Of a DNA stretch of 64,000 nt, positions 26,200 through 62,627 are shown in pieces. Source of the stretch: Candidatus Hermodarchaeota archaeon (GTDB lineage: Archaea > Asgardarchaeota > Lokiarchaeia > Sigyniarchaeales > SOKP01); contig JBHLLG010000012.1 in NCBI GenBank assembly GCA_048885925.1, positions 1 through 64,000 of the forward strand, written 5' to 3'. Both the position numbers and the translations under genes were made by a program. A model generated the notes under the pieces. The model worked only from the letters and a program-made list of their open reading frames with translations, ran no database searches and had not been told where the DNA came from. Position 1 is the stretch's first letter; each line of letters begins with the position of its first letter.

Positions 26200-27672
26200 A
26201 TGAATGTTAATAAAATTGCTGACAATATATATGAGATTCAACCAAAAACATTAATGACGCGTATTAAGGGGAACATTGAAAAATTTCAGATGAGAGTCCC
26301 TGTAAAAATATATGCTAATAATTACATTCTCGAACAAATAAAGTTAGATCGTACGCTAGAACAAATTTGCAATGTTGCTTGTTTACCTGGAATACAAAAA
26401 CATGCTATAGCTCTTTCGGACGCTCATCAAGGGTATGGTTTTTGCATAGGAGGAGTTGCTGGAACGGATGCAGAAAATGGAATGATTTCTCCGGGTGGGG
26501 TTGGATATGATATTAATTGTGGTGTAAGGTTACTAAGATCAAATTTAGATCTTAAAGATGTTAGGGATGTACTTCCAAATCTGTTGAACGCCATCTTTCA
26601 TAATATTCCTTCAGGTTTGGGTTCAAAAGGAAAACTCAATATTAGTTATTCTGATTTAGACAAAGTTCTAAATAATGGTGTGAATTGGGCATATGAAAAT
26701 GATTATGCAATTGAAGATGATATTGAGCACTTAGAAGAGAGAGGTTGTCTAAAAGAAGCTGATGCTAGTTTAGTTTCTGAAAGAGCAAAACAACGTGCGA
26801 TTAAACAGCTCGGCTCTCTAGGAAGTGGGAATCATTTTTTGGAAATTCAAAAAGTTGATCAAATTTATAATGAAGAAATCGCTAAAAAATTAGGTATCTT
26901 AAGAAAAGATCAAATAGCAGTTATGATTCACACAGGAAGTAGAGCTCTTGGTCATCAAGTTTGCACAGATTCATTACGTAACGTTGAAAAAGCTATGAAA
27001 AAATATAACATTAATGTCCCAGATAGAGAATTGGCATGTGTTCCAGCTAATAAACCTGAAGCACAGAATTACTTAAAACAAATGGCATGTGCTGCTAATT
27101 TTGGTTTTACAAATCGTCAATTAATAACTCATTGGTTAAGAGAATCATTTCAAAATGTCTTTAAAAAAGATATTGATGATTTAGATTTACATTTAATCTA
27201 TGGAGTTTGTCATAATATTCTTAAAATTGAAGAACATGAAATTAATGGTAAAAAAATGAAATTAAATGTTCATAGAAAAGGTGCTACAAGAGCTTTTCCA
27301 CCAGATCATCCAGTTTTACCATCTGATTATAAATCTATAGGTCAACCTGCATTAATTCCAGGAACTATGGGTTCAGCATCATATCTATGTGTAGGGAAGA
27401 AAAATGCTATGGATCTGTCATTCGGTTCTACTGCTCACGGTTCGGGAAGATTAATGTCTAGAACGAAAGCTATTAAGGAATATTGGGGAGAAAAAGTGAA
27501 AAATAATCTTAGCAAACAGGGTATTATTATACAAGCAGCTTCCATGAAGGTAATCGCTGAAGAAGCTCCCGGTGCTTATAAAGATATAGATCAAGTTGTA
27601 CAAGTAAGCCATGATTTAGGAATTGTTGAAAAAGTTGTTAGATTTGTTCCAGTAGGGGTTGTAAAGGGATAA
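26200..27672 (+). CDS. rtcB: tRNA-splicing ligase RtcB
   Basis: DAHQGYGFCIGGV, GYDINCG, GSLGSGNHFLE, HTGSR, VHRKGATRA, PGTMG, STAHGSGR, EEAPGAYK. Confidence 0.97.
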   Translation: MNVNKIADNIYEIQPKTLMTRIKGNIEKFQMRVPVKIYANNYILEQIKLDRTLEQICNVACLPGIQKHAIALSDAHQGYGFCIGGVAGTDAENGMISPGGVGYDINCGVRLLRSNLDLKDVRDVLPNLLNAIFHNIPSGLGSKGKLNISYSDLDKVLNNGVNWAYENDYAIEDDIEHLEERGCLKEADASLVSERAKQRAIKQLGSLGSGNHFLEIQKVDQIYNEEIAKKLGILRKDQIAVMIHTGSRALGHQVCTDSLRNVEKAMKKYNINVPDRELACVPANKPEAQNYLKQMACAANFGFTNRQLITHWLRESFQNVFKKDIDDLDLHLIYGVCHNILKIEEHEINGKKMKLNVHRKGATRAFPPDHPVLPSDYKSIGQPALIPGTMGSASYLCVGKKNAMDLSFGSTAHGSGRLMSRTKAIKEYWGEKVKNNLSKQGIIIQAASMKVIAEEAPGAYKDIDQVVQVSHDLGIVEKVVRFVPVGVVKG

Positions 27673-27701
27673 TTTCTTCCGTTAAATATTTATTTTTAGA
27701 T

Positions 27702-28139
27702 TTAAATATCAAATACAATGTTTATTTTTACTTTATCCTTTTTCTCTTCAATTTTCATGTAGGAATATGTTATTGCTTTCACTTCTGTACCTGATTCATG
27801 TTTATCTTTATTAAATTTTTCTCCTTTAACAATTGCCTCTAAAAAATATTTGTTTTGAATTTTTTTTATTGGTCGAATATCTATTTGGTTAAATAATAAA
27901 TCATCTACATCAAATAAGTAAAGAAATTCACTTAAAAAATCAAATAATAACGCCTCTTTATCTTCTGCTACAATAGTAATTTTTTTCTCAATTCTAGGAG
28001 ATATTAATTTCAAATTTGGAGTAATTGTTTCCATTAAGCTATATGCAGTTTGTTGAAAAGCCTCTTCTAAATTTCTACCTTTAATTTCAACAGAAACATC
28101 AGCAGTATGTTCCAGAAACCTATATCCTACATTCTTCAT
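27702..28139 (-). CDS. Archease (RtcB cofactor)
   Basis: YRFLEHTADV, LLFDFLSEFLY, EVKAITY, VFDI C-terminus; convergent with rtcB. Confidence 0.95.
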   Translation of the reverse strand: MKNVGYRFLEHTADVSVEIKGRNLEEAFQQTAYSLMETITPNLKLISPRIEKKITIVAEDKEALLFDFLSEFLYLFDVDDLLFNQIDIRPIKKIQNKYFLEAIVKGEKFNKDKHESGTEVKAITYSYMKIEEKKDKVKINIVFDI

Positions 28140-39119: not shown

Positions 39120-39220
39120 AGCCTCTGGGGGGAATTGAACCCCCGACCTACGGATTACGAATCCTTAGCATTTAAGGCAAAATGACTAAAAACGTTGCTC
39201 TACCGCTAAGCCACAGAGGC
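39120..39220 (-). tRNA. trnT: tRNA-Thr(CGT) with a 29-nt intron at 28/29 (39165-39193)
   Basis: GCCTCTG/CAGAGGC-T acceptor; spliced arm ACGGA-TTCGTAA-TCCGT; central helix AGCA/TGCT with bulges AC|G and AA|G. Confidence 0.9.
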
Positions 39221-40437: not shown

Positions 40438-40544
40438 GGGCTATTGGCGCAGGCAGGTAGCGCAGCAGGCTTTTAACCTGACATTTAAGGGAGAATCTGC
40501 CTTAAAAAGAAAGGTCGGGGGTTCAAATCCCCTATAGCCCGCCA
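40438..40544 (+). tRNA. trnK: tRNA-Lys(TTT) with a 30-nt intron at the anticodon-stem/variable-loop junction (best fit 44/45, about 40483-40512); CCA encoded
   Basis: GGGCTAT/ATAGCCC-G-CCA; GCAGG-CTTTTAA-CCTG; insert hairpin TTTAAGG/CCTTAAA; exact junction ambiguous by 1-2 nt. Confidence 0.85.
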
Positions 40545-60120: not shown

Positions 60121-60903
60121 ATGGGCAAAGAAAAAAAAACATTAGGAATCAAAACAACAAGATATTTTACAAAAAATTGTTCCAAATGTAGTTTTGAATA
60201 CCCTAATTGGTTTACAAATTGTCCTAAATGTGGAGCTGCATGGGATGATACCGAGCTAATACCTACAACAAAAGAAGTCAGTAAAAAGACAATAAAGATT
60301 GTTGTAAAAATTACTGAAGAAGATTTTAGTAAATCAATCTCTTATGTAAATTTAATTTTTAGTGCTGATCAAGGGACATCATGGTATCAAATGGAAATGG
60401 AGGCGAAACTGGATTATTATATTGCCGAAATAGCAGAAGTTCCAGTTGGTTCAGTTATCATCTATTATATTGAAGTTTATTTAGAAGATGGAGAAAAGGT
60501 TATTGAAAACAATGATGGAAATTACTTTTTTTATAAAGTAGGAATATCAATTGAAGAAGATAATAAAAAACCACCTAAACCAGAAAGAGCAATTATAAAA
60601 AATAGGATTAAAGAAACACCAATTAAACCTCAAAAGTATAATAAACCTCAAATAGAGGTACCGAAACAAAAATCTCATGTTACTCAAGAAATGCTTGAAA
60701 AATCCACTACAATTCCTCAACAACAAATTAGAGCTCCCAAAAGCTCGGAATTTAAAGTTTCTGATGATTATGATATAAGTAATGCTACTATATTTGGTAA
60801 ACCACAAACAAAAATAGACCCGGAGCTAAAAGTTTGCATTCATTGTAATTCGAAAATTAAGAAGATGTGGAGTATTTGCCCTATATGTGGAAAGAATCTC
60901 TAA
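60121..60903 (+). CDS. Zinc ribbon - Ig-like beta domain - low-complexity linker - zinc ribbon protein
   Basis: CSKC...CPKC; V.L.FS.D.G.SW...M...Y.A.I..VP.GS.I.YYIE; CIHC...CPIC. Confidence 0.75.
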   Translation: MGKEKKTLGIKTTRYFTKNCSKCSFEYPNWFTNCPKCGAAWDDTELIPTTKEVSKKTIKIVVKITEEDFSKSISYVNLIFSADQGTSWYQMEMEAKLDYYIAEIAEVPVGSVIIYYIEVYLEDGEKVIENNDGNYFFYKVGISIEEDNKKPPKPERAIIKNRIKETPIKPQKYNKPQIEVPKQKSHVTQEMLEKSTTIPQQQIRAPKSSEFKVSDDYDISNATIFGKPQTKIDPELKVCIHCNSKIKKMWSICPICGKNL

Positions 60904-61000: not shown

Positions 61001-62627
61001 TTATAATTTAGAACCACATTTATTACAAAATGCATAGTCGGATGACAAAATAGCACCACATTGTCTGCAGATTATTATTTCTTTTCCATCACGTTTTTGA
61101 GTGTCTGATTTAATTGAAGATTTTGATTGAGTTCTGAGAACTTGACTAGGCTGACTTTCGAGATCTGAAACATTGGGAATAATTCGAAGTTTACTAACCC
61201 CTTCCGGTTCTATTTCTTTTTTAGCTGTAAATGGCATAAAAGCAGTAACAGCACTTTTTTCTGCATCATCTGATTTTTGAGTTAAAGTTTGAAAAAGAGA
61301 AGCAGTACTTGTTTTTTCAACAATCGGTGTAGGTGGTGTAGGAGTTAATTGTTTTTCTTTTTCTACTTTTTCCTTTTTAGTTTTTTCTTTCTTATCTTTT
61401 TTAGACTTTTTCATTTCTTGTAATAATCTTTCTTGTTTTTCCTTTTCTTCTTGAAGTTTTTTCTCCTTTTCTTCCTTCTTTTTCTGTTTATCAAGCTTCT
61501 TTTTTTCCTTTTTAGAATAGATTGGCTCAGGCAAATAATCTGCTAAGGAATCTGATTTAGGCTCAGACGAATCTTTTGGTATAATAAATGGAACATTAGA
61601 TGATGGTAAACTCTGAACAGAGGGAGTTCCTCGAGAAGACTGAAATCCTTCTGGTGTTGGAGCAGGAATGGGAACATTTGATGTAAAAGGGACGGCCTTC
61701 GGTTTATATTTATCATCTTTAGGGTAAATTGGAGTTTCTTGTGAAGGTGTCTCACTAGCTAAGATTTCTTCTGGTGTTTTAAATGTAAATGAAGCGGGTG
61801 TTTTTGTTATTTCTTCTAATTGTGCATCAGGGAGGGGTATATCTGGTTCAGGTACTGGCGGTGCCTCGAACTCAAACTCCGGTTCTGGTTCAAATGTAGA
61901 TGGTGATTCATGGAATTGAGTAGGAGCTGGTTCCGGTACAGGAGGGGCTGCATATTCAAATTCTGGCTCTGATAGACTGATAGAGGGGGTAAATACTTCG
62001 GTTCCTGTTATAGGAATCATACCTGGGCTGAAAACTATTCCTTTAGTAATAAGTTGATCCGGAACTCCTGAACCTATCATTAGACATGCAAGGATATAAA
62101 AACAATCGCCTACTCCTTCACCTGTTTTAGCTGAAGTTTCCATATAATACAGATTAAAATTTCTTGTAAAGTGATTAATTTCATCTAAGGATACAGCCCT
62201 TTGACCAACTAAATCACTTTTATTACCAACTAATAATAATGGTATTTCACTTTTTACATTTGCTCTCACTTCTTCTATCCATTGTGGTAAATGGTCAAAA
62301 CTATCAGAATTAGTAAGATCAAAGATTAATAACGCACCTAATGAACCTCTATAATACATAGGTCGGATAGAGCTAAAACGTTCTTGTCCTCCAGTATCCC
62401 ATATTTGAAGCTTTGCACGTATAGGTCCTTCATCAGAGTCGATGGCGATGGTTTTAACATGAAAGTGTGTGCGTCTAGGGGGAATTCCACTTAGACACTA
62501 CACCTATCGTCATCTTATAGTCCTCTGTGAAAAATCCTTTACTAAAACGCAGCGTTAATGCAGTTTTACCTACTCCTCCATCTCCTACAACTATCGATTT
62601 AAAGAGGTAATCATATTCTTCAGCCAT
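61001..62627 (-). CDS. Rab-like GTPase with Pro-rich/charged tail and C-terminal zinc ribbon; two exons (62627-62498, 62466-61001), 531 aa spliced
   Basis: Exon 1 MAEEYDYLFKSIVVGDGGVGKT...DYKMTIGV joins via a split GAC codon to FHVKT...KLQIWDTGGQERFSSIRPMYYRGS, in frame with track ORF 61001-62359 (NKSD, ETSAK). Confidence 0.92.
62467..62497 (-). other. 31-nt bulge-helix-bulge intron in the Rab-like GTPase mRNA
   Basis: RNA 5'-GAUAG GUGU AG|U GUCUA-(14 nt)-UAGAC GCAC AC|A CUUUC-3': 4-bp helix, two 3-nt bulges, 5-bp intron helix; cleavage after bulge nt 2 restores GUA GAC UUU. Confidence 0.88.

Follow-up and report, generated by a model that had tools for sequence, protein, structure and literature searches.

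The window analysed here is a 64,000-nucleotide (nt) stretch of contig JBHLLG010000012.1 from a Candidatus Hermodarchaeota archaeon, and it carries on its minus strand (61001..62627) a gene for a Rab/Ras-like small GTPase whose reading frame is broken by 31 nt of additional sequence. This insert (62467..62497, minus strand) is probably a genuine tRNA-type bulge-helix-bulge (BHB) mini-intron within the coding sequence, sporadically gained or lost, spliced as a housekeeping matter and not an evolved control device. The exact insert, the BHB motif, the reading frame restored by excision and ongoing purifying selection on the gene are all observed, and it is selection, the evolutionary evidence, that argues most strongly for removal of the predicted intron. 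The genome to which the window belongs (G000) is a draft assembly of 181 contigs, 95% complete and with 29% G+C.

The GTPase gene is split between two reading frames

The gene was delimited from open reading frames and their translations, from Pfam matches and from orthologues. Read without splicing from the ATG at 62627, the frame encodes 43 GTPase residues, which include the P-loop GDGGVGKT and end in ..YKMTIGV, followed by VSKWNSP and by a TAG stop at 62477-62475 (62475..62477, minus strand), which the open reading frame list and translations place within the insert; the product would be 50 residues long. The rest of the protein lies in the +1 frame, which reads on as ..HFHVKTIAIDSDEGPIRAKLQIWDTGGQERF.. 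and is open up to the stop at 61003-61001 (minus strand). The 50-residue piece corresponds to positions 1-36 of the Pfam Ras profile and the downstream frame to positions 36-157 of 162, so that the two pieces abut, and a Zn_Ribbon_1 match lies at the C-terminus of the downstream frame. Because the Ras domain is complete across the break, the break reflects an insertion, not a deletion. The original prediction had described a 50-residue unspliced product with the P-loop but without the G3-G5 motifs, and this description is confirmed by the open reading frames, the translations and the Pfam matches.

Exon 1 (62498..62627, minus strand, 130 nt) runs from the ATG through the P-loop and the switch-I region to TIGV and the first base, G, of an Asp codon. 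Exon 2 (61001..62466, minus strand, 1466 nt with the stop) begins with the AC that completes GAC (Asp) and continues with FHVKTI, the G3 motif DTGGQE, the G4 motif GNKSD, the G5 motif TSAK, a linker and the zinc ribbon. The spliced product would have 531 residues, comprising the Rab/Ras-like small GTPase domain, a low-complexity linker rich in lysine and glutamate, and the C-terminal zinc ribbon. Full-length orthologues with this architecture were present in 22 of the 23 congeners searched.

The ends of the insert coincide with the cut sites of a BHB motif

Archaeal BHB motifs have two 3-nt bulges on opposite strands, 4 base pairs (bp) apart, and are cut after the second base of each bulge. 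Such a motif, of the hBHBh' form, was located around the insert by folding and confirmed with a pairing script (62464..62505, minus strand), and its central and inner helices were also obtained with RNAalifold. It consists of an outer helix of 2 bp (62505-62504/62465-62464), a central helix of 4 bp (62503-62500/62472-62469, GUGU/GCAC) and an inner helix of 5 bp (62496-62492/62477-62473), with bulges at 62499-62497 (AGU) and 62468-62466 (ACA). The cut sites derived from it are 62498|62497 and 62467|62466, and excision between them joins ..GTAG to ACTTT.., giving the reading TIGV-D-FHVKTI.

The cut sites were set by folding and the BHB rule prior to any orthologue alignment. In the first orthologue set, for which 23 congeners were searched, 19 of the full-length loci were aligned (the genome G012 is among the three that stood outside the alignment), and all 19 are uninterrupted and read TIGVDFHVKTI. 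The 31-column gap that MAFFT opened in these 19 congeneric orthologues coincides base for base with the BHB-derived cuts. The chance level is low: in the real exon context, an equally good motif at these sites was formed by 0.064% of 200,000 random 31-mers and by 0.02% of shuffled introns. The original prediction made the full GTPase dependent on splicing, and the reading frames and Pfam matches support this claim; the splice sites, which that prediction did not give, are placed here.

Contigs assembled from public sequencing runs also contain the insert. Record 6 of X1 (62412-62519) carries it with 0 differences, and record 9 of X3 (1541 nt, covering 61800-62615) carries it with 8 differences and 0 gaps. 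X1 and X3 are runs of different studies, one of which may be the source of the present sequence. Because the insert is found ungapped in contigs from the runs of two studies, it is genuine sequence and no error of assembly.

The interrupted gene is under purifying selection

A wider set of 80 orthologue loci was collected from metagenome-assembled genomes (MAGs) of Promethearchaeota or Promethearchaeia, which overlap with the genomes of the 19-locus set. Of these loci, 78 are uninterrupted, and two, L096 and L117, hold a homologous 31-nt insert at the same site. Between L096 and L117, both intron-bearing and from sister species, the ratio of nonsynonymous to synonymous substitution rates (dN/dS) comes to 0.10 across 419 codons and to 0.025 within the GTPase domain, with a dS of 0.23 and 0.34, respectively. 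A ratio of 0.10 between two intron-bearing sisters indicates that the interrupted gene is still selected, and therefore that it must be spliced.

Exon 2 is open for approximately 490-530 codons in all three intron-bearing genomes, and for 488 codons in G000, a genome of 29% G+C. The protein encoded by exon 1 is identical to that of orthologues despite many synonymous differences in the DNA, and all five exon-1 differences (5/5) seen in a variant contig extending into the intron are synonymous. The next-best GTPase match within G000 is only 43% identical, leaving no closer paralogue that might replace the split gene.

The intron is rare and patchily distributed among relatives

Of 134 family genomes, three contain a 20-nt pattern from the intron core; all three (G000, G012 and G074) are among the 53 that belong to the genus, and each has a single copy, always in this gene. 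G012 and G074 were matched by coordinates to L096 and L117 as the genomes that contain these loci. An intron unique to G000 is ruled out by its presence in G012 (and G074). A multi-copy mobile element was likewise rejected: G000 has no second copy, each carrier among the 134 family genomes has one, and there were 0 matches in metagenome_contigs.

The central helix is paired in all three species, with one compensatory exchange of U-A for C-G, in which the exon Gly codon GGU becomes GGC and the intron A becomes G. RNAalifold arrived independently at these central helices and at the inner ones. The introns of L096 and L117 differ from each other at three positions, every one of them unpaired. One outer pair uses the C of the GAC Asp codon, and GAC is found in 3/3 intron-bearing rows versus 10/97 intron-less rows, a comparison among overlapping genomes whose kin are not independent.

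The genomes nearest to G000 in RtcB sequence (86-89% identity, with G018, G010, G014 and G009 at 88-89%) are without the intron. G012 and G074 stand at 81% RtcB identity to G000 and rank 47th and 49th of 51. Mapped onto the unconstrained gene tree, the presence of the intron takes two changes, with the intron-less locus L112 inside a 98%-supported clade of L096 and L117. When the three intron-bearing sequences were constrained to one clade, the approximately unbiased (AU) test gave p = 0.052, a borderline value by which monophyly is not clearly rejected. No recombination tract around the intron was seen by eye, and at the start of exon 2 G000 agrees with its intron-less neighbours and differs from L096 and L117. 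Such a patchy spread is in keeping with sporadic gain or loss of the intron together with housekeeping splicing; repeated loss and lateral spread are indistinguishable here.

Some further features of the gene and its orthologue records were recorded in passing. The lysine- and glutamate-rich linker of the GTPase is approximately 300 residues long, and a convergent neighbouring gene (60121-60903, plus strand) has zinc ribbons at both ends. In another congener, a close paralogue or second copy of the GTPase (L022, G010:C415:1639-2052) has one in-frame TGA inside the match. Orthologue records that are 74-85% identical (L081, L091, L099, L101 and L134) are labelled Heimdallarchaeota, Hodarchaeota, Odinarchaeota, Thorarchaeota and even Nanopelagicaceae bacterium, which suggests inconsistent taxonomy or mis-binned contigs in public MAGs.

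Further BHB introns interrupt unrelated genes of the same genome

The proposal that similar hidden introns explain other broken genes, made with the original prediction, holds for at least two more genes of G000: a BHB scan at broken coding sequences, suggested there as a check and run here on this genome, found introns of approximately 32 nt in a CODH-family and a ferredoxin-like gene, which are unrelated to the GTPase. The first lies in a Prismane/CODH-family gene (L034:2337-2368 = G000:C4:38336-38367, plus strand, 32 nt) and has a canonical motif with 6 outer and 8 inner pairs. The Pfam matches on either side of it, 3-457 and 458-512, abut, and 14/14 congeneric orthologues are without the intron, their alignment gap lying exactly at the BHB cuts. 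The second lies in a 4Fe-4S ferredoxin-like gene (L033:1458-1489 = G000:C31:18957-18988, minus strand, 32 nt), with 8 outer and 10 inner pairs. Its excision restores the pattern CxxCxxCxxxC, and the gap is exact against three aligned intron-less orthologues; open frames of 184-188 residues are present in 14 other congeners, the alignment-level check covering these three (the anchor pattern missed 11 rows). The BHB cutting rule thus reproduced the alignment gaps exactly in three genes. The GTPase intron has 16 G+C in 31 nt, versus 29% G+C for the genome, and the CODH and ferredoxin introns have approximately 25%.

The Cys-codon exon stretches that flank the ferredoxin intron are mutually complementary, which may make the site permissive. 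In two other genomes, 32-nt inserts of quite different sequence stand at the same ferredoxin codon (L074 and L075, in G016:C24 and G023:C29), and they form a BHB with 3/4 central pairs (one mismatch), 12 outer pairs and 7 inner pairs. These inserts could have been gained independently at a hot spot, or their sequences could have diverged rapidly.

A loose genome-wide scan, uninformative when taken alone, returned 300,354 BHB motifs. Two open frames are joined by 3,599 of them, versus 3,320 for random positions with the same lengths; it was the ranking of the hits by helix strength that yielded the two convincing extra introns. Nine candidates picked by eye from the 93 that were at most 48 nt long and passed the coding filter were rejected, all being adjacent complete genes of different families by Pfam. 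The count of at least three coding-sequence introns in G000 is therefore a lower bound from a motif-led scan, in which 82 candidates were left out and the coding filter wrongly dropped the ferredoxin intron. A small-GTPase hit with internal stops (G000:C175) proved to be an intact gene with the stops beyond the gene end, and a BHB scan of ten other small-GTPase loci with internal stops, whose stop positions were not located, found no intron.

Two tRNA genes of the window found by Rfam (39120-39220, minus strand, and 40438-40541, plus strand) are 101 and 104 nt long, approximately 30 nt over the standard length, and were missed by ARAGORN. They presumably hold non-canonical mini-introns, and a BHB scan of both gave no clean parse.

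The genome encodes the machinery for BHB splicing

An intact gene for the RNA ligase RtcB (26200..27672, plus strand; Pfam profile positions 1-426 of 426, E 8e-171) is followed by one for archease, of the RtcB cofactor family (27702..28139, minus strand; Pfam, E 3e-42). Both had been placed within 26200-28139 by the original prediction, correctly so. The distance between RtcB and the GTPase gene is approximately 34 kb, and a spacing of 31-38 kb is also found in nine intron-less congeners. Since this distance is the same in relatives that lack the intron, it reflects conserved synteny and is therefore uninformative on the intron. Elsewhere in G000 the alpha subunit of the splicing endonuclease EndA is encoded, with a catalytic domain PF01974 at G000:C22:7945-8169 (101.7 bits). 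Asgard EndA is an (alpha-beta)2 enzyme, with an insert that has been linked to a broad substrate range, according to the available part of the report (PMC5829648).

In the proposed mechanism, folding of the pre-mRNA would produce a pair of 3-nt bulges flanking a 4-bp helix, and EndA would cut inside each bulge. RtcB and archease would then join the exons, with loss of the 31 nt and restoration of the frame (..TIGV|DFHVKTI..). The intron would be tolerated thanks to its removal by the tRNA-splicing machinery. We infer the action of EndA and RtcB on the GTPase RNA from the motif and from the known pathway, and its splicing would be constitutive and of a housekeeping character.

Discussion

Several observations weigh against a BHB mini-intron that is spliced as a housekeeping matter. 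The outer helix is only 2 bp long, and in G000 a slipped-register helix without a BHB, which arises from the GUGU/ACAC repeats around the splice sites, has a predicted stability advantage of 8.7 kcal/mol over the BHB conformer. The corresponding gap between BHB and competitor is 0.9 kcal/mol for the CODH intron, 0.1 for the ferredoxin intron and 4.3-4.6 for the introns of L096 and L117. The deficit in the GTPase intron could mean that splicing is inefficient or conditional; equally, nearest-neighbour energies could be a poor guide to a motif that is bound by protein. The motif is relaxed in L096 and L117, with two inner pairs and one outer pair unformed. Covariation statistics drawn from only three sequences are weak, and the observed score was reached in 185 of 500 shuffles. 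The dN/dS value comes from the sister pair L096/L117, not from the branch of G000 itself. None of the 24 runs listed for the stretch is of RNA, and the metatranscriptome X23 has no contig there, which says nothing on expression.

These points bear on the explanations that compete with a BHB mini-intron. The insert might have inactivated the GTPase of G000, in which case the BHB-like fold would be irrelevant or unprocessed. Such a dead gene would be in keeping with a competitor fold predicted to be more stable than the BHB, and selection on the branch of G000 is not separable; splicing, moreover, is predicted here from sequence. However, a dead gene would not be expected to keep exon 2 open for 488 codons at 29% G+C or to preserve an exon 1 protein identical to its orthologues through many synonymous changes, and the 5/5 synonymous exon-1 variants of the strain contig reaching into the intron, the dN/dS of 0.10 in the intron-bearing sister species and the want of any paralogue in G000 closer than 43% identity all argue the same way, so that inactivation is very unlikely. 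An error of assembly or sequencing, or programmed ribosomal frameshifting or bypass in place of splicing, is hardly credible: the assembly is indeed a draft of 181 contigs and the frame change is +1, but the insert is ungapped in the runs of two studies and in the assemblies of two other species, its 31 nt are absent from 78/80 loci and are no slippery site, and a BHB fold has its cut sites at the ends of the insert.

In the eukaryotic XBP1/HAC1 system, the stress sensor IRE1 cuts twin stem-loops and RtcB or Trl1 ligates the exons; the intron is conserved in orthologues, and regulation has been demonstrated. The GTPase gene resembles it in having a short frame-changing intron, no spliceosome, a predicted RtcB-type ligation and a protein that depends on splicing, and the original prediction had proposed a switch of this kind. 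Splicing would then be rate-limiting and condition-dependent, acting as an on/off or dosage switch that ties the GTPase to tRNA-splicing capacity or to stress. Production of the GTPase does appear wholly dependent on splicing, the outer helix is short (2 bp), the slipped helix is 8.7 kcal/mol more stable than the BHB, unlike the competitors of the CODH (0.9) and ferredoxin (0.1) introns, and the intron persists in two lineages, where the positions that pair are conserved. Yet it is present in 3/53 genomes of the genus and absent from 78/80 loci, so that it lacks the conservation among orthologues seen in XBP1/HAC1 and the remaining orthologues function without it, and metabolic genes unrelated to the GTPase contain introns of the same type. 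The splice sites lie in 3-nt BHB bulges and not in the hairpin loops of twin stem-loops, and the predicted nuclease is the housekeeping enzyme EndA. No sensor nuclease was found, the search for the IRE1 KEN RNase domain (PF06479) having given no match in G000 (95% complete) and none in 14 control genomes, so that it lacked a positive control and is not a validated negative. The proximity of RtcB and archease is conserved synteny that holds irrespective of the intron. On balance a dedicated regulatory role is disfavoured, and the proposed switch, unsupported on these grounds, appears improbable. One form that it might take is conformational gating, in which a stable slipped helix that hides the BHB would exchange with the cleavable BHB, with GTPase output then set by temperature, by a helicase, by ribosomes moving along exon 1 or by the level of EndA; this too we consider unlikely.

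A BHB mini-intron in a pre-mRNA has parallels in other archaea. The cbf5 pre-mRNA of Crenarchaeota was reportedly shown by Watanabe in 2002 to contain a BHB intron, and this is the closest known case. Lineage-specific loss has been inferred for it (Yokobori 2009, PMC2738675, as set out in the part of that paper available). Like the GTPase intron, it is a short BHB intron in a coding sequence that depends on the tRNA-splicing machinery, has a lineage-specific distribution and, in the sources available in part, no known function. The GTPase case differs in its host, a small GTPase and not a pseudouridine synthase, in its lineage (Promethearchaeota/Asgard), in its far patchier spread (3/53 of one genus) and in the further coding-sequence introns that the same genome has in unrelated genes. 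By 2020, according to the accessible portion of the report that added an intron in a Haloferax 5' untranslated region (UTR), cbf5 was the only other BHB intron reported in archaeal mRNA (PMC7714728). The mRNA of HVO_1309 in Haloferax volcanii is a substrate of the splicing endonuclease, as that of the GTPase is predicted to be, and there removal seems, from that portion, to aid expression (PMC7714728). Its intron lies in the 5' UTR, where it breaks no frame, and is documented in the same portion by knock-down in vivo and an assay in vitro (PMC7714728), whereas the GTPase intron differs from both cases in being known from the genome sequence only.

Asgard tRNA introns, in the part of a preprint that was available, were gained repeatedly at BHB-permissive sites (bioRxiv 10.64898/2026.10.13.758758). 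They share with the GTPase intron a small BHB, lineage-specific gains, an exon context that permits the motif and an arrival route that is unexplained, as far as the same part of the preprint goes (bioRxiv 10.64898/2026.10.13.758758). That work concerns tRNA genes only, and its main text, to the extent available, does not contain the word "mRNA", unlike the present intron, which lies in a coding sequence (bioRxiv 10.64898/2026.10.13.758758). In the full-text literature searched, which lay outside subscription journals, the BHB introns described for archaeal mRNAs were confined to cbf5 of Crenarchaeota and the one haloarchaeal 5' UTR, and no report of a BHB intron in an Asgard protein-coding gene was found. 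Judged by its motif and position, the predicted GTPase intron is a BHB pre-mRNA intron, of a known kind, here in an Asgard coding sequence.

A member of a eukaryote-signature family, the Rab/Ras-like GTPases, would thus need RNA splicing for its expression in an Asgard archaeon. For annotation, such genes will be called truncated or frameshifted unless BHB introns are sought. A regulatory switch would matter more, if true, and is unsupported so far; conformational gating, were it to operate, would give the closest prokaryotic relatives of eukaryotes an archaeal equivalent of XBP1/HAC1 control, built on EndA. The patchy spread of the three coding-sequence introns points to ongoing gain and loss, and this lineage lends itself to asking how introns enter protein-coding genes, and are retained there, in the archaea most closely related to eukaryotes.

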